Below are positions 12,254 to 25,408 of a stretch of DNA of 64,000 nt, one piece after another. This DNA comes from a virus (lineage: Duplodnaviria; Caudoviricetes). The notes beneath the pieces are model-generated. The model saw nothing but the letters and a program-made list of their open reading frames with translations. It was not told the DNA's origin and ran no database searches. Each line of letters begins with the position of its first letter. Positions within the stretch are counted from its first letter, which is position 1. The stretch is from IMG/VR virus record IMGVR_UViG_3300014204_000110, one strand, 5' to 3'. The translations under genes and the position numbers were made by a program.

Positions 12254-13585
12254 ATGCCTTTCATGACAATTAGAGATCAAGTCGCAGCTGAATTTTTCCC
12301 AAAGAAAGAAGATAGAGTTAAATATACTAATGTATATGACGCTTTTACTTCTCGCGGACGGTTAATGGATTCTGACGGCAATATTAATAAATATGAACTA
12401 AAAGATTTAGTAACAAGAGAAGATCTTATGCGGTTTATGCCTCAAACGGTAGAAACTGTTGTACGAGAAGCTATTGAACCTAATCTTTTTATAATCGATC
12501 GACTCTTTCAGAGTATTACTATCGAACAGGGTAGTCGTATACAGATTGGTGCTATTGGTGCCATGACTGCTGGACGAGTTGGACAGGCTGGAGAATATCC
12601 AGAAAAAATGTTAGACCTTGATGGTGGAGACATGATTGCTATCACTACTGATAAGTATGGTATCAAAATTTCTCTTACTGAAGAGGTTGTTTCTCAGAAT
12701 CAGTTTGATGTCGTAAACGTTTGGCTTCGTGCTGCTGGTAAAGCAATGGCTCGTTGTAAAGAACGTATCGGTATGAAACTTATAAATGAGATGGGATATA
12801 AGGTATTTGATAATGCATCACCTTCTGCTTCATATTGTGGTAGTACAACTGGTCGAAATATCGCTGGCGTTACTAATGGAAGTATGACTGCTAATGATGT
12901 ATTTGAAATGTATGCTTATCTTCTAAATCGTGGATTTACTCCAGATACTCTTCTACTTCATCCTCTTGCTTGGAAGCTTTTTGCAACTGATACAGAGATG
13001 AGAGAAGTAGTTCTTGCTGGTTCTACGATTGCTCAGGTACAGGGTGGAAAACCAGTATCACAATGGGGTGGAACATCTCATAATGGTTATGGTCTTCGTA
13101 CAACTGGTACTGGTAATGAGAATCTTGCGGGTAGCGTTCCTAAAGGACCAAATGCTTGGACTCAGACATTGAATCCTCTTGGTGCAACATGGAATGTACG
13201 ACCTGCATATCTTCCTTCTCCAATACAAGTAATTGTAACTCCAATGGTTCCTTTCTCATATGGAACTGCTGGAATTGAACGTATGGATACTGGAAGTACT
13301 TGTAACGTCATTATGGTTGATAGTAGTAACTGTGCAGTAATTGGTCAGAGCGAAGCAATTCGTACTGATCGTTGGACTGATCCTGAACGGGATATAGTCA
13401 ATATTAAACTACGTGAAGCTTATGGTATGGCTGTTCTTGAACAGGGTAAAGGTATTGCTAAAGCAAGTAATATAGCTATTGCTAAAAATTACAACTTTGA
13501 GAATTACAATTCTCAGACTTTATCAAACTTTGATCCTACTACAGCTCCTAGTGGTTTCTCAGCTGCAAGTCCTAATCTACCGTAA
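12254..13585 (+). CDS. Major capsid protein (HK97-fold)
   Basis: RBS AGGAG; GEYPE, KYGIKISLTEE and PDTLLLHPLAW motifs; followed by a terminator. Confidence 0.88.
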   Translation: MPFMTIRDQVAAEFFPKKEDRVKYTNVYDAFTSRGRLMDSDGNINKYELKDLVTREDLMRFMPQTVETVVREAIEPNLFIIDRLFQSITIEQGSRIQIGAIGAMTAGRVGQAGEYPEKMLDLDGGDMIAITTDKYGIKISLTEEVVSQNQFDVVNVWLRAAGKAMARCKERIGMKLINEMGYKVFDNASPSASYCGSTTGRNIAGVTNGSMTANDVFEMYAYLLNRGFTPDTLLLHPLAWKLFATDTEMREVVLAGSTIAQVQGGKPVSQWGGTSHNGYGLRTTGTGNENLAGSVPKGPNAWTQTLNPLGATWNVRPAYLPSPIQVIVTPMVPFSYGTAGIERMDTGSTCNVIMVDSSNCAVIGQSEAIRTDRWTDPERDIVNIKLREAYGMAVLEQGKGIAKASNIAIAKNYNFENYNSQTLSNFDPTTAPSGFSAASPNLP

Positions 13586-17154: not shown

Positions 17155-19908
17155 ATGCCTATAGCTAGAGAAATAAATCTACCCTCTCCTGCTACATATG
17201 TCCAAGATTATGGTCTCAATGTTTCTCCTACTCCTACTCAACGAAATAAAAAAGTCGTTGTTATTGGTACAGCTGAAGATGGTCCAATGTATGAACCTAT
17301 TCAGATTGAAAAACCAGAGGATGCAGAATATGTCTGGGGAAGACTTGGTGCTGGTGATCTTGTTCGTGGTGTCTTCGAATGTTGGGATGTTCAAGGCGGT
17401 CATCCTACTGTTGTAGGAGTTCGTATTGGAAATGGTGAAGAAGCCTCTTTAGATATCGAAGAATCCACAGGTAGTGGATCAGATACTGAACTTGGTGGTA
17501 ATGCCACATCTTTAAAATTAGAAGCTCTTTTTCCTGGAGCAATATATAATCAGATTAGTGTAAGCTATGATGAAAATAGAGATGTTGCAATATATAATCC
17601 TAAAACTGGAGTTACTTCTACTTTTTCAGTTGATACAGAACGACCAACTAATCCTAACGTAGATGCACATAATGTAGCCGAGTTAGTAGACGCAATAAAT
17701 GCAGATCCTAATTTAAATAGTATTTTAAAAGCGACATATTCTGGAATATTAACAGATTATGAAGTATGTATTAGTGGAAATAGTACTGGTGTAAATAATA
17801 CTTCTACTTATGTTGAAGTAAGTTTACCTGATTTAATCAGTAATAGTTATATTACTACTTCTGGTTATATGATTCCTAATCCAATTCATGGAGTAGTTTC
17901 AGCTGGAAATGATATTATAAATGTTGAAGCAATTGAAGCTGTAAGTATTTCTGAATGGGAACAGATACAGTGTGCTGGTAAAACTACTAACAAATTAGCA
18001 TATATGCCATTGGATGGTAAAGCACCAGCTCGATGGAATACAATACAATCATTATATGATTATAATAGTGATTCAGAATATATTCAAGATCCTTCTGGTA
18101 ATATAGTTTCTGAGTATATATATAATCTTAATAGTGCTCTTATGGATGGTGGTACTGGAGAAGGTGGACCTACTAGATCTGGTGGTTACTTTGTTACTGG
18201 ACTTCCTACTAATACTATTCGAGTCACCGTTCCTCTTTGTATTGCAGATAATGAAGAACTCGTAAATAGTGGTGTTGCGGATGCTTATATTAATAGTTTA
18301 ATTACATCTACTTATGCATCATATTCTGGTGTTGGACATAGATATGCAACTTGTTCTGGAATTGCTACTAAATTAGTAGAAGGTGTTGCAGTTCGACCTT
18401 CTGGTAAAATTCAGATTCAGGCTGCAATGTCAGATGATCCAAATGATTTCTGGCAGACTCTTCCATATGATGGAATATCTGGTATTTATTTATCAAGTTA
18501 TTCAGCGGGTGTAGCAGTATTTTCAATTGGAGCAAATGCTTATGCAGATAGTCCTATTATGCAAACACTTGTATCATCTGGAAATATTATACGACCTGAT
18601 GTATATCTTAGAATAACTGCTAATACTGTAAAAGGATTTTTGAATGAGAAAGAAAACTTAAATGCTTTATCAAGTGCTTCTACTCTCACAGATTATTTTG
18701 TTAGAGGACAGGAAATAGTATTTAATACTCCTCCTTCTTTTAATGTTACAGTAAATTATGGAACTAGGATTGAATATGAACTTGGAAGCAATGTTACATT
18801 AAGTGATGCTGCTAATGGTAAATTTGTATTTGATGACGCAGAGCTATTGCCTGGTCCAGGAGGTGGTCCTTTATCTAATACAACAAAATCATATTTACGA
18901 TTTAGATATACTTATTTACCAACGTGGCCTAATATAACTACTGCTGCTAAAGCAATGTCTGGTGGAAGTAATGGAACTAATCTAAATAGTCGTCAGCGTA
19001 AAGAACTATTAACTACATGTTATGATAGACTCCGAAATTATGGAGCTGATCTATGGGTCCCAATGAGTGCGTTTATAGATGAATTAAGTGAACGATTTAA
19101 TCCAATTACTGGTCTTAAGGAAACAATTCCTACAGACTATATAACTGACATTAATGACTTTCTAGAAGATCTATCTATAAATAATATTCAACCACATGCT
19201 ATACTTGGTGTTAAACCAATGGATGACGTTAATCAGGCTAATAAAGATCTATGGGTAAAACGACTTACAGAACGTGATCTTAAAGATCCTAATCGAGGTG
19301 CTAATATTATGGCTTTGGTTGGAAGTAAGTTTATTTCTGTATCCGCTTTTGAACCTGTATTTCTAAATATTGGTAGAGGTCGACCATATGTAGCAAATGG
19401 ACAAGCTGCTTATGCAGGTATGCTTGCTTCAATGCCATATGATATATCTCCAACTAATAAATCTATTACTGGACTTCAAGGTCTTAGATTTTCATTGTCA
19501 ACATCTCAATATGAAGCTCTTAATAGTTCTAGATATGTTACTATGAGAACAAAACCTGGACGTGATCCAGTTGTTGTAGAAGATGTTACTGCTGCACCAG
19601 TTGGAAGCGATTTCGTAAACTGGTCAACTTATAGTATCACTGCTGAAGCTGCTAATAGAGTATATGCAATTGCAGAAACCTTTATTGGTAGACCAAATAG
19701 TGTAGAAGTAAGAACATCTCTAGAACAGTTAATCTCTAATACTCTTATGAGTATGGCTGGTTTACGAGGATTCGATTTCTCCATAAATAGTACTCCGAAT
19801 CAACAGGTTCTTGGTATTATCGAGGTCGATCTTATAATTGTTCCGATTTTTAGTATTAAAAAAATTAGAACAACTGTTAAATTGCGTAAAAACTTACCAA
19901 GTAGATAA
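17155..19908 (+). CDS. Tail sheath protein with a large central insertion
   Basis: RBS GGAGG; N-terminal VVVIGTAEDGPMYEP; C-terminal SPTNKSI, FIGRPN and VDLIIVPIFSIKKI sheath motifs. Confidence 0.9.
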   Translation: MPIAREINLPSPATYVQDYGLNVSPTPTQRNKKVVVIGTAEDGPMYEPIQIEKPEDAEYVWGRLGAGDLVRGVFECWDVQGGHPTVVGVRIGNGEEASLDIEESTGSGSDTELGGNATSLKLEALFPGAIYNQISVSYDENRDVAIYNPKTGVTSTFSVDTERPTNPNVDAHNVAELVDAINADPNLNSILKATYSGILTDYEVCISGNSTGVNNTSTYVEVSLPDLISNSYITTSGYMIPNPIHGVVSAGNDIINVEAIEAVSISEWEQIQCAGKTTNKLAYMPLDGKAPARWNTIQSLYDYNSDSEYIQDPSGNIVSEYIYNLNSALMDGGTGEGGPTRSGGYFVTGLPTNTIRVTVPLCIADNEELVNSGVADAYINSLITSTYASYSGVGHRYATCSGIATKLVEGVAVRPSGKIQIQAAMSDDPNDFWQTLPYDGISGIYLSSYSAGVAVFSIGANAYADSPIMQTLVSSGNIIRPDVYLRITANTVKGFLNEKENLNALSSASTLTDYFVRGQEIVFNTPPSFNVTVNYGTRIEYELGSNVTLSDAANGKFVFDDAELLPGPGGGPLSNTTKSYLRFRYTYLPTWPNITTAAKAMSGGSNGTNLNSRQRKELLTTCYDRLRNYGADLWVPMSAFIDELSERFNPITGLKETIPTDYITDINDFLEDLSINNIQPHAILGVKPMDDVNQANKDLWVKRLTERDLKDPNRGANIMALVGSKFISVSAFEPVFLNIGRGRPYVANGQAAYAGMLASMPYDISPTNKSITGLQGLRFSLSTSQYEALNSSRYVTMRTKPGRDPVVVEDVTAAPVGSDFVNWSTYSITAEAANRVYAIAETFIGRPNSVEVRTSLEQLISNTLMSMAGLRGFDFSINSTPNQQVLGIIEVDLIIVPIFSIKKIRTTVKLRKNLPSR

Positions 19909-19994
19909 AATAGTTAGGAGTCATGACCTAACTTATAAGGGTAGAGGTAGTTTAACCTATTGCCTCTACCCAAACTTTAAAAATAGGAAAAATA

Positions 19995-20474
19995 ATGAGT
20001 TCAAAAACTTGTAAAACATGTAATATTGAAAAAGATGAATCGGAATATTATAAATATAAAAATACATATTGTCGAAGAGATCATTCGTATAAAGAATGTA
20101 AAAAATGTTATAATCTTAGAGTTAAAAAATATTGTGAAAATAATAAAGAAAAAAAAAGAAAATCCAGTAAAATATGGTGGGAAAATAATAAAACTAGTAG
20201 AAATATAATACGTAAAGAACAACGTTTAAAACGAAATTATGATTTATCTTTAATTGATAGAGAAAATATTTTAAAAGAACAAGATTATAAATGTAAAAGT
20301 TGTAATACTGATTTAAAAAATTTAATATCTTATCATATACATATTGATCATGATCATACTACAAATGTTATTCGTGGAATATTATGTAGAGGATGTAATA
20401 TTGCTTTAGGTTTATTAAATGATGACCCAGATAAAATATTAAAATTATATAATTATTTAAAACCCTTTAAATAA
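19995..20474 (+). CDS. Free-standing HNH endonuclease, endonuclease VII family
   Basis: CxxC motifs; QDYKCKSC...HIDHDH...IRGILCRGCNIALG. Confidence 0.88.
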   Translation: MSSKTCKTCNIEKDESEYYKYKNTYCRRDHSYKECKKCYNLRVKKYCENNKEKKRKSSKIWWENNKTSRNIIRKEQRLKRNYDLSLIDRENILKEQDYKCKSCNTDLKNLISYHIHIDHDHTTNVIRGILCRGCNIALGLLNDDPDKILKLYNYLKPFK

Positions 20475-20508
20475 TATCAAAATCTTCCAAGTAGATAACT
20501 TGGAAGTA

Positions 20509-20540
20509 AGAAAGGGGGTTAAAATCCCCTTTCTAGTTTT
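20509..20540 (+). terminator. Stem-loop or terminator upstream of the tube gene
   Basis: AGAAAGGGGG-ttaaaa-TCCCCTTTCT followed by AGTTTT. Confidence 0.6.
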
Positions 20541-20559
20541 AACAATAAGGAGGTAATTT

Positions 20560-22396
20560 ATGGGCGCAAGTCCTGCTAATTACCAGAATACTGAAAGCGC
20601 AGTTGATGGTATTAAATCCACTTATAACGCTTCGGCAGGAACAGATATCGTCGCTACCATTGACGGTATCTTAATTGGAAATTTGAATGGTATAAGTTTC
20701 AGTACAACCCGTGAATAGCTTGCGGCCTTATATAGTAATATATATTGAATAACGCCATTAATTGCTGGAACATCCTTATAGGACAATCAGCAGCTACTTA
20801 ATTGTAGTTCAACGACTATCCCGAAAGGGAGTAGAGTTTAGTAAACTCGAAACATGGCGGTTCTTTGAAAGAACGTGATATAGTCTGAACTTACTGGTAA
20901 CAGTAAGAGAATGTATGGAAACGATACATTCGTAACATATTTGGAGAAAGCTCCGATTTATACACTGGGTAAATAACACTGCCCACTTTTAGAGTAATCT
21001 AATTGTAAAAACATTGGGTGAATTCGGTGAAGGTCTGAAAAGAATAATACCGAGCCAAGACCTTGGTACACTAAGGTAAGGTGTAGAGACTACTGGAGAG
21101 ATATAGTTCTCTTAATAACCAGTCCAGCGCCCAACATCCTTATAGGATGAAGAGATAGTCCAAAATAAAGAGTGTAGATGCCGTTTCATTCGGCAGAGGT
21201 AAGCGTAAGCAACATTGCGCTTGTAAAATTCTGTAAATTGCTGGGATAACCTTATAGGTCAATCAGCAGCCAAGCTTAAGTAGAAATACTTTTGAAGGTT
21301 CAGAGACTATTCCGAAAGGAAGTAGGGTCTAAGTAGACTCGAAAGACAGAATAGTTAGAAATAACTAATGATATAGTCCGATCTTTATGGTAACATAAAG
21401 AGAATATATGGAAACGATATATTCGTAACACAAATGGGTCATGCTGGTTCGTTAATCTCAAAGTAAAAGGGATCGTATGTTAGTAATAACATATTGCAAC
21501 TCGTCAAATTGCTGGAATCTCCTTAGAGTCTTAAATACTTAGAAATAAGTGACAATTTTAAGAATTGGACAATCAGCAACTAAATTCATAAGTAATTATG
21601 ATAAATGCTCAGAGACTAAATGGCGAGATCCTCTATCTAGAGGAATAAGATATAGTCCAGACTACAACCGAAAGGGCTTGAGAAATCAAGAGTAGTAAAG
21701 TTACGAACTTTGATAGACATGCATTATATGATATAATGCAAGGTACATTTCAGGACAGTAATGCAGGACCTGCAGATAGGTATAAATATTATGCTAAAAC
21801 TACAGATATTCCTGCTGGTGGACGAAGTTTACTTTTAGGTAAACAACATCTTGACGCATTAGGAGCACTTGGTTCACAAAAATCAATTGCAAACTATAGC
21901 GATCAACTTCCACCAATGACTATCACTTTAACTTCAATGAATGAGTATGGAAATGTTAGTGCAATGCACATACTTGGAGTTGAATTGATTAATGAGGGTT
22001 CTGGTGTGTCAATTGATGATATTGTGACAGAAACGCAGATGAACGGTTGTCTGCCTCAGTAGTAATACTGATGATAAAACATCACCATATGCGGGAATAA
22101 CCTTAGAGTCTTAAGTACCAAAGTGTAACAATCTTAAGAATTGGTCAATCCGCAGGAAAGACTCGAAAGAGAATCCTCAGAGACTTTATGTGATGCTCCT
22201 ACTTGTAGGATGAAGATAAAGTCCGATCTTAATAGAAATATTAAGCTAACACATTTGGACGTTTGTAGCTCGTGGTATTATCGGTTGGAAACCAATCTCT
22301 CAGAATGGTGGAAATGTGAATATTAAAGCAGATGTACTTGCTCAGATGAATAATCTTACAGCAGTACAACAGGCTCAATACAACGGGCTCAATTAG
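20560..22396 (+). CDS. Tail tube protein, 238 aa after splicing; exons 20560-20712, 20944-20970, 21171-21206, 21437-21458, 21701-22040, 22258-22396
   Basis: RBS AAGGAGG; joined exons give 717 nt in one frame: ...ISFSTTR|EKAPIYTLG|SVDAVSFGRGKR|GHAGSLIF|TNFDRHAL...TETQM|TFVARG...; collinear with the intact paralogue at 22464. Confidence 0.92.
20713..20943 (+). mobile_element. Group I intron 1 (231 nt, no ORF)
   Basis: Exon ends in U with P1 CCGU/GCGG; core AATTGCTGGAA...AATCAGCAG; P7 GACTA/TAGTC; terminal G. Confidence 0.9.
20971..21170 (+). mobile_element. Group I intron 2 (200 nt, no ORF)
   Basis: P1 GGGU/GCCC; P10 ACACT pairs with exon AGTGT; core GAATTCGGTGAA...ACCGAG; GAGACTAC/AAGAGATAGTCC; terminal G. 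Confidence 0.88.
21207..21436 (+). mobile_element. Group I intron 3 (230 nt, no ORF)
   Basis: P1 AAGCGU/GCGCUU; core AATTGCTGGGA...AATCAGCAG; CAGAGACTA/GATATAGTCC; terminal G. Confidence 0.9.
21459..21700 (+). mobile_element. Group I intron 4 (242 nt, no ORF)
   Basis: P1 AUCU/GGAU; P10 GTAA/TTAC; core AATTGCTGGAA...AATCAGCA; CAGAGACTAA/AAGATATAGTCC; terminal G; phase 1. Confidence 0.9.
22041..22257 (+). mobile_element. Group I intron 5 (217 nt, no ORF)
   Basis: P1 GCAGAU/GUCUGC; core TGCGGGAA...AATCCGCAG; CAGAGACTTT/AAGATAAAGTCC (covarying P7); terminal G; phase 2. Confidence 0.9.
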
Positions 22397-22429
22397 CACA
22401 GAGTTTACCATTTAACGCTTAAAAAATTG

Positions 22430-22452
22430 GGAGGGTTCATGTAACCCTCCTT
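22430..22452 (+). terminator. Stem-loop after the tube gene
   Basis: GGAGGGTT-catgt-AACCCTCC with a short T tail. Confidence 0.55.
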
Positions 22453-22463
22453 ATACTATCTAT

Positions 22464-23498
22464 ATGGCAACGTTTTTCGATAAAATTAAAAATAATATAT
22501 TTACTCAAGTAGAGGAAAATGTCTCTGCTAATAGTCAGCCATATTTGGGTGGATCGCTTGGTCCAGCAGAAGTTAATCCATTTGCTGAAGATCCAGTAGT
22601 AGATTTTTCTAAGAGTAATACATCATATAGTGGTAGTGATTGTACTGTTATGGTACAATTGAATAATAAACTTATTGTCTTAGGTAATCTAGAGACATTC
22701 TCACATTCTACGCATCGACGAAAAGCACCAGTAGACGTAATTGGACGATCTCACGCAAAAGGTTTTGTTAGTGGAAGTCGTGTTGTAGCAGGAAGTATGA
22801 TATTTATTGTATTTGATAGATCTCCATTGTATGATGTTGTTAAAGAAATTAATTACGTTAGAAATGCTTCTGATAGACGTACATCACCATTACCTGATCA
22901 ACTTCCACCATTAGATTTAATATTACTATTTCATAATGAATATGGACATAGAAGTTTAACTAGAGTCTATGGGGTAGAATTTGTTGATGAGGGTCAGGTT
23001 CATAGTATTAATGATCTTTATACGGAATGTACAATGAGTTACATTGCTCGTGATATTGATCAGATGATTGCTTATGATGAACTTAGTGATTTTAAAAATA
23101 TGTTATTTGAACGTCAGGTTCGAGGACAATTTGTAGATAATAAATTTACTGGATTACTTGAATATAAAGCAAGAGTTGAAAGAGAACTTTCTGATTGTGA
23201 AAAAGTAATTTCTGGTATTGATATGGAAACAGATAGACGTGCTGTTGCTGGAGTTTTTACATTAAGTGCTTCATATTGGTTATCTAGACTATCTTATGGA
23301 AAAGATTATGTAACACGCGAAGAACTTAATAAAGAAAAAACAAAACAACTTAAAATAAAAGAATATCTACTTACTGAACTTGAAAAGATTAATCAACAAG
23401 TTAGAATTTATGAACAGAACGTTAATGTTGGTTTTAATGCTCAACACACTGATGCTGGTAATGTACAATTTGATTACTTATCTCATGCGAGTAAATAA
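22464..23498 (+). CDS. Tail tube-like paralogue with a C-terminal coiled coil
   Basis: SYSGSD...RRKAPV..IG...GSRVVAGSMIFIVFDR...DQLPP...GVEFVDEG, collinear with the spliced tube protein. Confidence 0.8.
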   Translation: MATFFDKIKNNIFTQVEENVSANSQPYLGGSLGPAEVNPFAEDPVVDFSKSNTSYSGSDCTVMVQLNNKLIVLGNLETFSHSTHRRKAPVDVIGRSHAKGFVSGSRVVAGSMIFIVFDRSPLYDVVKEINYVRNASDRRTSPLPDQLPPLDLILLFHNEYGHRSLTRVYGVEFVDEGQVHSINDLYTECTMSYIARDIDQMIAYDELSDFKNMLFERQVRGQFVDNKFTGLLEYKARVERELSDCEKVISGIDMETDRRAVAGVFTLSASYWLSRLSYGKDYVTREELNKEKTKQLKIKEYLLTELEKINQQVRIYEQNVNVGFNAQHTDAGNVQFDYLSHASK

Positions 23499-25408
23499 TG
23501 TGGCCATTTAAAAAATCCGAAAATGATATACTTCAACAGGATTTAAAATCTAAAGAAAATAATATAAAACTTCAACAGAATGCAAGTTTTATAGGAAGTT
23601 CTAATGATCCTTTTTCTACTCCTACACGAGATAATTATCAAACTTATCCTTATGATTATTATTCATCCTCTGATTGTAAAATATTTCTAGGAGATATCTG
23701 GTGTGATGATATTGTTTCAATACAATATAATTGTTCTCAATCTAAAACTCCAATATATGGATATGCTTCACAAAACTTTGATGCTATAGCTAAAGGTCAG
23801 ATACTTGTACAAGGAACATTAGCAATCGCATTTAAAGAAGTTGGGTATTTAAATGTTATTCAAGCAACGTTAGAAGCTCAACGAAGAAATTCATCTGAAG
23901 TAATATCAAGTAAAATTAAATCTTATCAAACTGAAGCAAAAGATGGAACTGCTAAATTTATACCAAGACTTAATACAATTGGAGAACAATCAGTAGATTC
24001 TCAAGTATCTTTTCAGTATTCTCCAAATGGAAGTCCTCAGATAATAAGACAACAACAAACTATTGAACAGATATTAACAAGTAAAAAAGGTAATATTGCT
24101 AGTTCTGGAGTTGCTAAAGAACTTGGATTAGGCCCAAGTGATAATAGAGATTTTGAAGATTTTGCTGAAGTACTTGAAGATAGTATCTGGGGTGATAGTA
24201 ATGGACAAGCAATTAATCTTGTAGATAAACTTAAAAGAGTCGATGAATTTGATTATAATTCAAATGGTGGTATTACTACTGCTAAAGGTAGACAGTATTC
24301 TGATGTTTTAAATATTATGCTTACGTTTGGTGACATTAATGATTATCGAGCTGAACATACAATGATTGTTATAAATGATGTTCATTTTACATCTAGTTCA
24401 CTTATTGTTAACACTGATGGAAATCCTATATTTGAAGAATATACTTTTATAGCTAGAGATATTAATGATAGCATCACTGGTAAGTCTATAAACGTTTCTC
24501 CTATTAAACTTAATGTTGGAATTGATAATTTAAAACTGTCTACATTAGAAAACGTTAATGAAATTGAAAAGTTTTTAAATGAAAGAGATTCAAATAGTCA
24601 GGTAACAATTAATTTCTTATCTGCTTATAATGGCACTTGGAATGTTTATAATGGTCAGATTATTGCTACTTTTATATCTAATAAAACTGAACCTTTTACT
24701 GATCAAGTTTGTAAGTTTGCTGAAAACATTGTTAATGAAATTTATTATCCAGAAATTGTAAATACAAGTTACTCTCAATATATTATAGAACTTGATATGA
24801 CTGATAATAAACTTACAATGATACTTGAACAAGTTACTGCAAATACTCGTAGTTATAGAGTAATATCTCCTACTCGAAGTGGGTTTGCTGCGGTTAATAT
24901 TATTTCTAGAGATGATTTATTTCAAGGATCAAGTCTTCCTGAACCAATACAAGACCGACCAATATCTAATACACTAACTCAAAAGAAACAAGCAAGTATA
25001 AATGAAAGTACTAAAGTTAAAGAAGTTCAAGTAACATCATCGTATGATATAGAACGTCCATTTCAAGAAGATAGATTAAATATAATTAATGCTAATTTAA
25101 AAGAAACTAGATTTGATAGTGTAGCAGGATCACAGGTTTCTGATGATATTAAAGCTAGACTAGGTGATCAGGATGCAAGACTTAGACAACAAAATAAAGA
25201 ATCTGATCTTGAAAAACAACGTAGAGTTTCACAAGAAATGCAAGATGAACGAAATTTAAAATTAGAAATAGATCATCTAGAACAAAAAGTTAATATACAA
25301 TTACCTTGGTATGATGTTATTAATCCTGGTATAATTTCTGAACGAAATAAAGAGAAAAAAGAATTAAAAGAAGCTAAATTAAAATATTATAAAGATATTG
25401 GAAATTAA
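23498..25408 (+). CDS. Tube-domain-containing tail protein (third paralogue)
   Basis: N-terminal YYSSSD...SKTPIYGY...GQILVQGTL tube-like motifs and a later YTFIARD. Confidence 0.7.
   Translation: MWPFKKSENDILQQDLKSKENNIKLQQNASFIGSSNDPFSTPTRDNYQTYPYDYYSSSDCKIFLGDIWCDDIVSIQYNCSQSKTPIYGYASQNFDAIAKGQILVQGTLAIAFKEVGYLNVIQATLEAQRRNSSEVISSKIKSYQTEAKDGTAKFIPRLNTIGEQSVDSQVSFQYSPNGSPQIIRQQQTIEQILTSKKGNIASSGVAKELGLGPSDNRDFEDFAEVLEDSIWGDSNGQAINLVDKLKRVDEFDYNSNGGITTAKGRQYSDVLNIMLTFGDINDYRAEHTMIVINDVHFTSSSLIVNTDGNPIFEEYTFIARDINDSITGKSINVSPIKLNVGIDNLKLSTLENVNEIEKFLNERDSNSQVTINFLSAYNGTWNVYNGQIIATFISNKTEPFTDQVCKFAENIVNEIYYPEIVNTSYSQYIIELDMTDNKLTMILEQVTANTRSYRVISPTRSGFAAVNIISRDDLFQGSSLPEPIQDRPISNTLTQKKQASINESTKVKEVQVTSSYDIERPFQEDRLNIINANLKETRFDSVAGSQVSDDIKARLGDQDARLRQQNKESDLEKQRRVSQEMQDERNLKLEIDHLEQKVNIQLPWYDVINPGIISERNKEKKELKEAKLKYYKDIGN

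Follow-up and report, generated by a model that had tools for sequence, protein, structure and literature searches.

The window analysed here, a stretch of 64,000 nt to which all coordinates refer, very probably carries the major tail-tube gene of a jumbo myophage of the Bacillus phage 0305phi8-36 lineage, invaded by five separate group I introns that contain no ORF and are predicted to be spliced out. The gene spans 1837 nt on the plus strand (20560..22396) as six exons and five introns. The five elements match the group I covariance model and have the anatomy that the splicing chemistry needs, and their deletion at the positions given below recreates a protein that more than 100 relatives encode uninterrupted. 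The source is an uncultured jumbo myophage of the 0305phi8-36 lineage from landfill and groundwater metagenomes.

The gene is situated in the tail module. A tail sheath gene of 917 aa (17155..19908, plus strand; phrog_16991 tail sheath, 1.1e-39; phrog_279, 3.2e-25; weak PF04984) takes the position that sheath gene gp139 has in 0305phi8-36. It is followed by a free-standing gene for an Endonuclease VII-type (HNH-like) protein (19995..20474, plus strand; PF02945, 3e-18; PHROG endonuclease VII families to 2.7e-25), which ends 85 nt upstream of the tube start codon. A ribosome-binding site read from the sequence, AAGGAGG (20547..20553, plus strand), lies 6 nt 5' of the ATG. On the other side, an intact tube paralogue of 344 aa (22464..23498, plus strand) is the counterpart of the 0305phi8-36 gp141 ‘tail tube paralog’; such a paralogue stands directly 3' of the tube gene in nearly all relatives, and altogether three tube-like paralogues are arranged in tandem. 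In the relatives the tube gene directly follows the sheath gene, with a gap of at most 100 nt in about 97 of them; here only the inserted endonuclease gene intervenes.

Exon 1 (20560..20712, plus strand as are all further exons and introns; 153 nt) encodes residues 1-51, ending in ISFSTTR, and is collinear with the intact homologues. Then come exon 2 (20944..20970; 27 nt, EKAPIYTLG), exon 3 (21171..21206; 36 nt, SVDAVSFGRGKR), exon 4 (21437..21458; 22 nt, GHAGSLI plus one base), exon 5 (21701..22040; 340 nt, residues 80-193) and exon 6 (22258..22396; 139 nt including the TAG stop), so that three of the six exons measure 22-36 nt. With the introns removed, which make up 1120 of the 1837 nt, a frame of 717 nt remains, that is 238 aa and the stop. 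The figures of the original prediction (elements of 200-242 nt, 1120 of 1837 nt intronic, exons of 22-36 nt, a 717-nt frame for 238 aa) were all reproduced, as were the ribosome-binding site and ATG. The spliced product aligns over all five junctions without gaps with more than 100 uninterrupted homologues of ~240 aa, the closest of which are up to about 90% identical to it. The predicted collinearity with the paralogue at 22464 was likewise borne out by blastp (33% identity, E = 7e-27, all junctions gap-free). Because the junctions lie inside invariant stretches (TR|EK, LG|SV, KR|GH, LI|FT and QM|TF), a boundary shift of one base would show. The junction peptide APIYTLGSVDAVSFGR is found in the spliced product. 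A 30-nt version of exon 3 ending in AGAGGT was considered and dropped, as the 36-nt form gives both an 8-bp P1 with U.G and the family-invariant GKR. Skipping of exon 2 or exon 3 would keep the frame, and skipping of exon 4 would break it.

The Rfam group I intron model RF00028 (gathering score 50) was used to search the whole 64-kb window. It returned five full-length matches (model positions 1-253; 59.9-84.7 bits, E = 1e-12 to 4e-20), all on the plus strand and inside 20690-22245, and no match elsewhere in the window. Since every one of the five exceeds the gathering score, the claim of five ORF-less group I introns in this gene stands. Over the phage's own genome, the same model gave at least three matches, and three of the five from the window were not among the matches listed there.

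Intron 1 (20713..20943; 231 nt, phase 0; 60.2 bits) has P1 CCGU/GCGG, a P10 of 3 bp and a P7.1/P7.2-type insert, and reaches an in-frame stop at 6 nt. Intron 2 (20971..21170; 200 nt, phase 0; 59.9 bits) forms P1 UGGGU/GCCCA and a P10 of 5 bp, also has its stop at 6 nt, and is devoid of the P9 hairpin, the P9 positions being deleted in the RF00028 alignment. Intron 3 (21207..21436; 230 nt, phase 0; 80.3 bits) carries an 8-bp P1, a 3-bp P10 and a P7.1/P7.2-type insert. Intron 4 (21459..21700; 242 nt, phase 1; 84.7 bits), with P1 AUCU/GGAU, a P10 of 2 bp and a stop at 8 nt, has a long P5 extension and no P7.1/P7.2, and intron 5 (22041..22257; 217 nt, phase 2; 72.4 bits), with P1 GCAGAU/GUCUGC and a 3-bp P10, is of the same type. 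None of the five contains an ORF. The U.G pair in P1, the P7 pairing and the terminal G that had been described are present in all of them: P1 comprises 4, 5, 8, 4 and 6 bp in introns 1-5, each time closed by U.G after the exon-terminal U, with the guide sequence at intron nt 9-18, and the P7 strands are GACUA/UAGUC in introns 1-4 and the compensatory GACUU/AAGUC in intron 5. The P10 helices of 2-3 bp (all except that of intron 2) are weak evidence taken alone. Less favourable features are the P1 of only 4 bp in introns 1 and 4, the P10 of only 2 bp in intron 4 and the missing P9 of intron 2. It should be added that an in-frame stop occurs 6-30 nt into every intron, and that such early stops are known as a feature of introns in bacteria and phages (PMC3984707).

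Covariation was seen in both sets of three sequences compared, in which 11 of 49 and 10 of 28 predicted pairs were changed on both sides with pairing kept; these compensatory changes, which include pairs of intron 1 compared with intron 3 and pairs of intron 4, are located in P3, P4, P5, P6, P7.1, P7.2, P9 and P9.1. Introns 1, 2 and 3 have an insert of 32-33 nt between P7 and the 3' strand of P3, which in introns 1 and 3 folds as two hairpins with compensatory changes, whereas introns 4 and 5 possess the long P5 extension instead. In our reading, made with the general model RF00028 only, the insert of introns 1-3 resembles the P7.1/P7.2 of subgroup IA (IA2-like). Pairwise identity among the five introns is 61-72%, with the pairs 1/3 and 4/5 at 72%, against 49% (maximum 63%) for shuffled sequences. 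A recent duplication of introns within the gene was considered as well, and is unsupported: introns 3 and 4 are each 88% identical to a counterpart in another phage, compared with the 61-72% among themselves.

The identity of the protein was approached through a close orthologue, P0003. Its tblastn search led to the ORF140 locus of 0305phi8-36 (46% identity over the matched parts), for which the depositors' annotation of gp140 reads ‘identified as virion protein by mass spectrometry; tail tube’, and also to KLEB27-3 gp026, annotated as ‘tail tube protein’. With the order sheath, tube, paralogue conserved, the spliced protein is, as judged by sequence and gene order, the orthologue of gp140. 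The AlphaFold2 model of P0003 is of moderate confidence (pLDDT 65, pTM 0.57). Foldseek against the PDB gave nothing at E <= 0.001 for this model (best E = 0.045), and the fold was therefore judged by the kinds of protein in the hit list and by VIA-align Z-scores. The latter were 4.2-6.4, all below 8 (rmsd for the most part 4-6 A, 86-138 residues aligned); the 50 best structural matches listed were without exception tube, Hcp or injection-system tube proteins, and none was a capsid protein. No Pfam family was matched by the exon-5 product, the paralogue, the 636-aa neighbour or P0003, and the profile of family alignment A1 found only a chance-level match (E = 0.13) among sequences of solved structures. 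The assignment as tube protein is supported by orthology and synteny with gp140, with the modest fold matches to tube and Hcp proteins pointing the same way.

It is unlikely, though somewhat less so than the decaying gene and the assembly artefact discussed further below, that the introns are real and spliced while the protein is not the bulk tube subunit, being instead a minor tube-fold protein (initiator or terminator) or a head protein. Such a view could draw on the PHROG match, phrog_9206, labelled ‘major head protein’ as are some RefSeq records, on the three tandem tube-like paralogues, among which roles could be divided, and on the modest fold matches (Z not above 6.4). It is opposed by the original 0305phi8-36 record, where gp140 is a ‘major structural protein ... 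tail tube’ with mass-spectrometry evidence, by the tail-tube annotation in another isolate, by the composition of the structural hit list and by the location directly behind the sheath gene in all relatives. Moreover, the window has a separate HK97-type capsid gene of its own (12254-13585; PF25209, 4.4e-16). The name ‘major head protein’ used by PHROG and RefSeq for this family looks wrong.

The reading frame is open through all six exons, and the residues invariant in the family are all retained. With pN/pS of 0.2-0.35 and synonymous sites near saturation, the exons are under purifying selection, and between exon 5 and that of a relative from run X3, which also has intron 5, 11 of 12 differences fall on third codon positions. 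One irregularity was noticed at the 3' end, where a 14-nt insertion (22379..22392, equally 22372-22385; plus strand), with the repeat GGCTCAA at its flanks, puts the last codons into another frame, and the protein ends in QYNGLN and not in the homologue-like QLAQSLPFNA; without it the stop would be at 22420-22422. Relatives' contigs in runs X3 and X14 match the stretch except for exactly these 14 letters, which they miss. This frameshifting insertion could be a first sign of decay, and it alters only a poorly conserved tail.

A gene in decay, or a dispensable one, in which selfish introns and the 14-nt insertion have piled up as the paralogue or another protein builds the tube, seems very improbable to us. 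On such an account some introns would no longer splice, for instance intron 2 without its P9 or introns 1 and 4 with their short P1; the insertion, absent from relatives, and the tube paralogue adjoining downstream would also fit. However, the open exons with their conserved residues and the pN/pS values argue against it, conservation in the protein is lowest in the shifted C-terminal tail, and all five introns surpass the curated Rfam threshold over the full model. Furthermore, the paralogue accompanies an intact copy of the gene in practically all relatives, so it is no replacement.

That the intron array is an artefact, with intron-like repeats misjoined by a metagenome assembler, can be practically dismissed: the sequence does come from a metagenome bin and the Logan contigs of runs X1 and X2 break in intron 3 near 21323, where related introns of other organisms pile up, but overlapping X2 contigs span the whole locus with zero differences and a 117-kb X1 contig covers it up to 21323 (both runs holding the locus completely may be its source and so are not independent), the introns are only 61-72% alike and hence not collapsed repeats, each is placed so that the frame is restored to the base, and assemblies made independently from other samples have orthologous introns at the same positions. 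Among the contigs of the examined runs, none joins across an intron at the splice sites as an intron-less DNA allele would. No RNA run was among those listed for the locus; the one run labelled RNA-Seq (X14, ‘probably DNA’) yielded nothing but brief matches of great depth to conserved intron cores from other organisms, and no splice-site joint. When 19900-23600 was compared by megablast with 50,697 phage records, the sole match was an exact one of 32 nt, in a core segment of intron 1.

For the five-intron gene as preferred here, the following course may be envisaged. One late pre-mRNA of 1.8 kb would be transcribed from the gene and translated from its own ribosome-binding site. Each intron would fold and bind a free guanosine, which would attack after the exon-terminal U marked by the U.G pair of P1; the freed 5' exon would then attack after the terminal G of the intron, with the short P10 as a guide. 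Five such events would join the six exons into the 717-nt mRNA, and tube output would thus depend on five splicing events, as originally proposed. Ribosomes entering an unspliced intron would stop within 6-30 nt and so be kept out of the ribozyme core. The introns plausibly arrived by homing, each in a separate event, within the two stretches where the gene is most conserved (residues 46-85 and 172-198). They would be ORF-less either through loss of their endonuclease genes or through movement in trans, and each of them would destroy the target site of its cognate endonuclease.

The tube gene is an intron insertion hot spot. The interrupted tube genes of relatives contain one to four introns each, at no fewer than nine sites overall, and the insertions fall in those same two stretches, all nine family sites ranking between the 74th and 93rd percentile for nucleotide conservation. 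At the site of intron 3, L114 has an intron 88% identical to it (RF00028, 83 bits), and at that of intron 4, L008 has one likewise 88% identical (66.7 bits); the site of intron 2 (60|61) is also used in L127, and that of intron 5 is interrupted in L087, L111 and L123 as well. Larger probable introns with LAGLIDADG endonuclease genes are present at the same or neighbouring sites in relatives, so that endonuclease-bearing and ORF-less insertions share sites across the clade. Rfam gave nothing at E <= 0.01 for the endonuclease-bearing insertions of L087, L103 and L111. In the first insertion of L008, inspection by eye revealed a 6-bp P1 with U.G, the core motif GAAGAUAUAGUC and a terminal G, and these endonuclease-bearing insertions are probably ORF-bearing group I introns. 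One relative has an exon of 13 nt in its tube gene. Among the related alleles found, no other has five introns all without an ORF.

The expectation that standard gene callers miss such genes proved correct: in public protein sets, interrupted alleles of this gene are represented by exon fragments and by a chimera of an endonuclease with an exon. A 439-aa homologue, P0014, was at first sight readable as intein-bearing; this was rejected in favour of an intron-encoded LAGLIDADG ORF that continues in frame through exon 5 and terminates at the site of intron 5.

The endonuclease gene between the sheath and tube genes is a mobile insertion, absent from about 97 relatives. Only L084 has a homologue of it at this place (41% identical), which sits beside an uninterrupted tube gene, so that a link between endonuclease and introns is thereby neither supported nor excluded. 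A comparable arrangement is that of psbA and F-CphI in cyanophage S-PM2, for which collaborative (trans) homing is described (Zeng et al. 2009, as reviewed in PMC3984707): there too a free-standing endonuclease gene adjoins a gene with an ORF-less intron. Unlike that system, five introns are present here, and because of this at most one of the sites could be the target of the upstream endonuclease.

More tentatively, and with the odds rather against it, the five-intron allele could be more than a passive collection: it may store immunities accumulated while co-infecting jumbo phages compete with one another. Each ORF-less intron could then persist because it removes the target of one particular homing endonuclease, a different one for each intron, among those that circulate in the clade: the LAGLIDADG enzymes found in relatives at the same or adjacent sites and possibly the upstream Endonuclease VII-type enzyme. 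If this were true, the tube gene could not be cut in mixed infections, in which rivals would be cut by the endonuclease of the phage itself, and, as a corollary, such enzymes would move ORF-less introns in trans.

Several phage genes offer themselves for comparison. In Staphylococcus phage Twort, orf142, a tail tube protein gene according to PMC11878797, carries three self-splicing group I introns (Landthaler & Shub 1999, as cited there). Both cases concern several small group I introns in a late structural gene of a large myophage, the tail tube gene, with short exons between the introns; exon skipping has been seen in Twort and is conceivable here. The differences are that Twort has three introns, compared with five here, and that its splicing was shown by experiment, whereas here it is predicted from sequence. 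That the three-intron gene of Twort is also a tail tube gene suggests that tube genes are recurrent targets. The tblastn search of P0003 gave no Herelleviridae match, and the two tube proteins are not detectably related in sequence.

[quoted passage not shown] 2021, PMC7886860). It is likewise a structural gene of a metagenomic phage shattered so that annotation was defeated. Its introns were recognised via endonuclease-type protein domains in three of the four segments, whereas the present ones are ORF-less ribozymes of 200-242 nt detected with a covariance model and bounded to the base by intact homologues; the tube gene, about one third as large, has one interruption more. Jug huge phages also contain small group I introns devoid of ORFs (PMC12880540), and for Bastillevirinae as many as three introns in a gene, a small internal exon and exon skipping are described (PMC11878797). 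Common traits are that the introns, of ~206 nt, lack ORFs, are numerous in the genome and interrupt essential genes of large phages, where free-standing endonuclease genes are common. In those phages, however, two or three is the reported number per gene, with terL split into two or three pieces and at most three introns in polymerase and terminase genes, and the targets are mostly genes of DNA metabolism and packaging, in contrast to five introns in a single 717-nt tail gene. To call the present gene extreme, as was done originally, is right, but it is not unprecedented in kind, given Twort, the crAss-like capsid gene and the relative with four introns.

The finding means that callers working from ORFs overlook an essential virion gene whose product is probably made in high copy number. 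The transcript would unite five compact natural group I ribozymes of 200-242 nt, one of them without P9, with exons of 27, 36 and 22 nt between them. The locus is therewith a natural test bed for the folding of neighbouring introns free of mutual interference, the order of splicing, exon skipping and the fit of all these with coupled translation. Furthermore, at least nine insertion sites in one gene of 240 codons across the clade provide a well-resolved view of the homing cycle in giant phages and of how introns and endonucleases compete there.

The tube gene (20560-22396) lies between the tail sheath gene (17155-19908) and a 344-aa ORF at 22464, and the longest ORF within this stretch does not exceed 108 aa. 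In three-frame translation the exon pieces continue one another, forming six exons on the plus strand, 20560-20712, 20944-20970, 21171-21206, 21437-21458, 21701-22040 and 22258-22396. When joined, these make 717 nt, i.e. 238 codons and a stop, whereas the introns (231, 200, 230, 242 and 217 nt from 5' to 3') take up 1120 of 1837 nt, or 61% of the locus, with one intron per 143 nt of coding sequence; recomputation returned the very frame, protein length and intron share of the original prediction. A search with the product of exon 5 retrieved 109 longer proteins, mostly of 225-256 aa and with identity up to 91%. Aligned with 21 of these, the spliced product was gap-free through all five junctions, which fall inside family-invariant stretches (..ISFSTTR/EKAPIY.., ..G/SVDAVSFGRGKR/GHAGSLI/FTNFDRH.. 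and ..TETQM/TFVAR.., slashes marking junctions), and was thus collinear with uninterrupted homologues. The predicted collinearity with the intact paralogue, the ORF at 22464-23498, was also borne out (33% identity, E = 7e-27). The boundaries are therefore supported by homologue alignment and do not rest on RNA structure alone.

All Rfam families were scanned against the full 64-kb window with the gathering score as threshold (50 for RF00028, the group I catalytic intron model). Exactly five matches exceeded it, all to RF00028, on the plus strand and within the tube gene: 20690-20907 (intron 1, 60.2 bits), 20961-21170 (intron 2, 59.9 bits), 21175-21400 (intron 3, 80.3 bits), 21440-21680 (intron 4, 84.7 bits) and 22031-22245 (intron 5, 72.4 bits). 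Every match covers the full model (positions 1-253), and the E-values for the window, from 1e-12 to 4e-20, are far beyond chance, so that the proposed group I assignment held in the covariance-model check. Since the matches end at P9, introns 1, 3 and 5 reach approximately 12-36 nt further, to the terminal G. A sixth RF00028 match in the window's own genome (contig C121, 66638-66835, 70.4 bits, corresponding to 1501-1698 of locus L003, minus strand) is flanked by an ORF of 265 aa and, just downstream, by one of 503 aa that has a glycosyltransferase group 1 domain; it was not recovered in a second, multi-locus Rfam scan at gathering score, presumably due to speed filters. Furthermore, a 32-nt segment of the intron 1 core (20803-20834, P7 to P7.1/P7.2) has 100% identical copies in regions without annotation of Escherichia and Salmonella phages of ~146-151 kb (cardinal, nepoznato, PD114 and UAB_1), and likewise of four records named Campylobacter phage; these may be unannotated group I introns.

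At the 5' splice site of all five introns the exon-terminal U pairs with the G that begins an internal guide sequence (intron nt 9-18), with P1 helices CCGU/GCGG, UGGGU/GCCCA, GUAAGCGU/GCGCUUGU, AUCU/GGAU and GCAGAU/GUCUGC in introns 1 to 5, while the 3' splice site has a terminal G and a P10 of 2-5 bp. P7 pairs GACUA with UAGUC in introns 1-4; in intron 5 the two strands read GACUU and AAGUC, each being altered in such a way that pairing is preserved. The first in-frame stop from the upstream exon is met 6, 6, 30, 8 and 22 nt into introns 1 to 5; early stops of this kind are seen as protecting ribozyme folding from ribosomes (PMC3984707). Two structural types were distinguished: in the RF00028 alignment introns 1-3 have 32-33 extra nt between P7 and the P3 3' strand, an insert which in introns 1 and 3 forms two hairpins that we read as P7.1/P7.2, the mark of subgroup IA, whereas introns 4 and 5 are without it and have a long P5 extension instead. 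Intron 2 (20971-21170) has no P9 hairpin, with only 9 nt from the P7 3' strand to the terminal G; it nevertheless scores 59.9 bits, has the longest P10 of the five (5 bp) and would be a group I ribozyme of naturally minimal size, 200 nt. When introns 1 and 3 were folded to a consensus with an intron of the relative L114, and introns 4 and 5 with one of the relative L008, double-sided changes that preserve pairing were seen in 11 of 49 and 10 of 28 pairs, respectively; given sets of three sequences, this counts as support and not as a statistical result. Pairwise likeness of the five introns is 61-72% (shuffles, 49% with a maximum of 63%), and they are therefore not recent copies of one another.

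Two runs, each from a separate study (landfill 2018 and groundwater 2022), yielded contigs that reproduce the locus without differences; since the bin may derive from either, the agreement rules out a mistake of a single assembler but does not amount to independent sampling. All six exons are open and keep every family-invariant residue; in comparisons with eight relatives pN/pS is 0.2-0.35 and synonymous sites are nearly saturated. A relative in sequencing run X3, whose contig spans intron 5, carries that intron too; of its 12 differences from exon 5, 11 are at third codon positions. Decay of the tube gene could be read from its 3' end, where a 14-nt insertion (22379-22392, within the stretch 22372-22392) with the 7-nt repeat GGCTCAA at its flanks moves the final codons into another frame, the protein ending in ...QYNGLN versus the homologue-like ...QLAQSLPFNA, whose frame without the insertion would stop at 22420-22422; exactly these 14 letters are missing from contigs of relatives in runs X3 and X14. 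We consider decay improbable, however, and regard the altered tail as probably tolerated, since no other part of the family is as poorly conserved. The insertion itself may have arisen as a small duplication or as a scar left by repair.

We read the gene thus interrupted as a tail tube gene, most probably that of the major subunit. Its upstream neighbour matches sheath family phrog_16991 (1.1e-39), and the tube-family proteins found no family in Pfam and fall in phrog_9206, labelled 'major head protein'. We take this label, also present in RefSeq for NC_009760 ORF140 and NC_041884, for a probably propagated mis-annotation on four lines of evidence. Firstly, tblastn of P0003, a close orthologue, against phage records hit jumbo myophages only (Bacillus phages 0305phi8-36, vB_BceM_WH1, Edson and KLEB27-3, Moorella MTATph1 and Acinetobacter ME3). 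Secondly, the original GenBank record describes 0305phi8-36 ORF140 as 'major structural protein; gp140; identified as virion protein by mass spectrometry; tail tube', and the order of sheath subunit gp139, gp140 and gp141 ('tail tube paralog') is identical in the window; the KLEB27-3 counterpart is annotated as tail tube protein. Thirdly, the window has a separate HK97-type capsid gene (12254-13585, PF25209, 4.4e-16). Finally, the 50 best VIA-align rows for an AlphaFold2 model of P0003 were all tail-tube, Hcp or contractile-injection-system tube proteins (Z at most 6.4). This model, based on 48 homologues, was of moderate confidence (pLDDT 65, pTM 0.57; below 50 pLDDT at residues 50-75, which include four of the five intron sites), and Foldseek with it returned nothing at E <= 0.001. 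Together with the ORFs in 22464-25408, the tube gene forms a tandem of three tube-like genes of rising size (238 aa spliced, 344 aa and 636 aa, the last with a weak phrog_9206 match), paralleling gp140-142 of 0305phi8-36.

Of the 80 best IMG/VR relatives, 79 have the tube gene as a single unbroken ORF with the paralogue after it. Interrupted alleles were nevertheless found. L008, a 213-kb contig, has two introns, a LAGLIDADG-bearing insertion after residue 70 and an orthologue of intron 4 at the same site (88% identical, RF00028 66.7 bits). L114 (the same contig as L126) has four, namely LAGLIDADG introns at 54/55, at approximately residue 77 and at 151/152, and an orthologue of intron 3 that is 230 nt long and lacks an ORF (88% identical, RF00028 83 bits); between this ORF-less intron and the LAGLIDADG intron at approximately residue 77 lies a micro-exon of 13 nt (GGTCATGCAGGGT, L114 1083-1095), shorter than every exon in the window. 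Other alleles have one insertion (L103, 70/71), three (L111-113, at ~55, 70/71 and ~190-194), two or three including the intron-5 site (L087, L123-125) or at least three including the intron-2 site 60/61 (L127). In total, at least nine distinct sites are used; ranked by nucleotide conservation across 93 distinct uninterrupted relatives, all of them fall between the 74th and 93rd percentiles, as expected of homing endonucleases, which recognise conserved sequence. Among the alleles found, that of the window has the most introns and is the sole one with every intron ORF-less. Another IMG/VR relative (L009, 4925-6601) seems to have an interruption of ~1.17 kb in the paralogue rather than in the tube gene, close to the corresponding conserved region; no Rfam match reached the gathering score there. 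That gene callers would miss such genes is confirmed by public collections, where 'proteins' of 65-117 aa (P0110, P0116 and P0117) are tube exon fragments and P0014 is an endonuclease ORF joined in frame to exon 5.

The sheath and tube genes are separated by the gene for a 159-aa Endonuclease VII-type nuclease (19995-20474, PF02945, 3e-18). In ~97 relatives the sheath-tube gap is at most 100 nt and the gene is absent, which argues for a free-standing mobile endonuclease; only L084 has a homologue there (41% identical), and its tube gene is uninterrupted. The nuclease is a possible candidate for moving one neighbouring ORF-less intron in trans, for which collaborative homing provides a model (PMC3984707).

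Multiple interruption has precedents. Twort orf142, since identified as a gene for the tail tube, contains three group I introns that self-splice, and shows exon skipping (PMC11878797); polymerase and terminase genes of Bastillevirinae have up to three introns each (PMC11878797). Jug huge phages average 18.5 introns per genome, of ~206 nt each, with terL in two to three fragments (PMC12880540), and the capsid gene of a crAss-like Zeta-group phage is in five fragments with four intervening segments (PMC7886860). The window tube gene, in contrast to the three introns of Twort and the four segments of the Zeta-group phage, has five, their splicing being predicted; in the literature searched, whose coverage is incomplete, no published phage gene with five group I introns was found. 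The observation is thus confirmed and its interpretation supported: with splicing a prediction from sequence, five bona fide group I introns very probably interrupt a functional tail-tube gene. The earlier claim of an extreme stands for the number of introns and their 61% share of the locus, but not for the kind itself: multiply interrupted phage genes are already known, and this tube gene is an extreme case of them.
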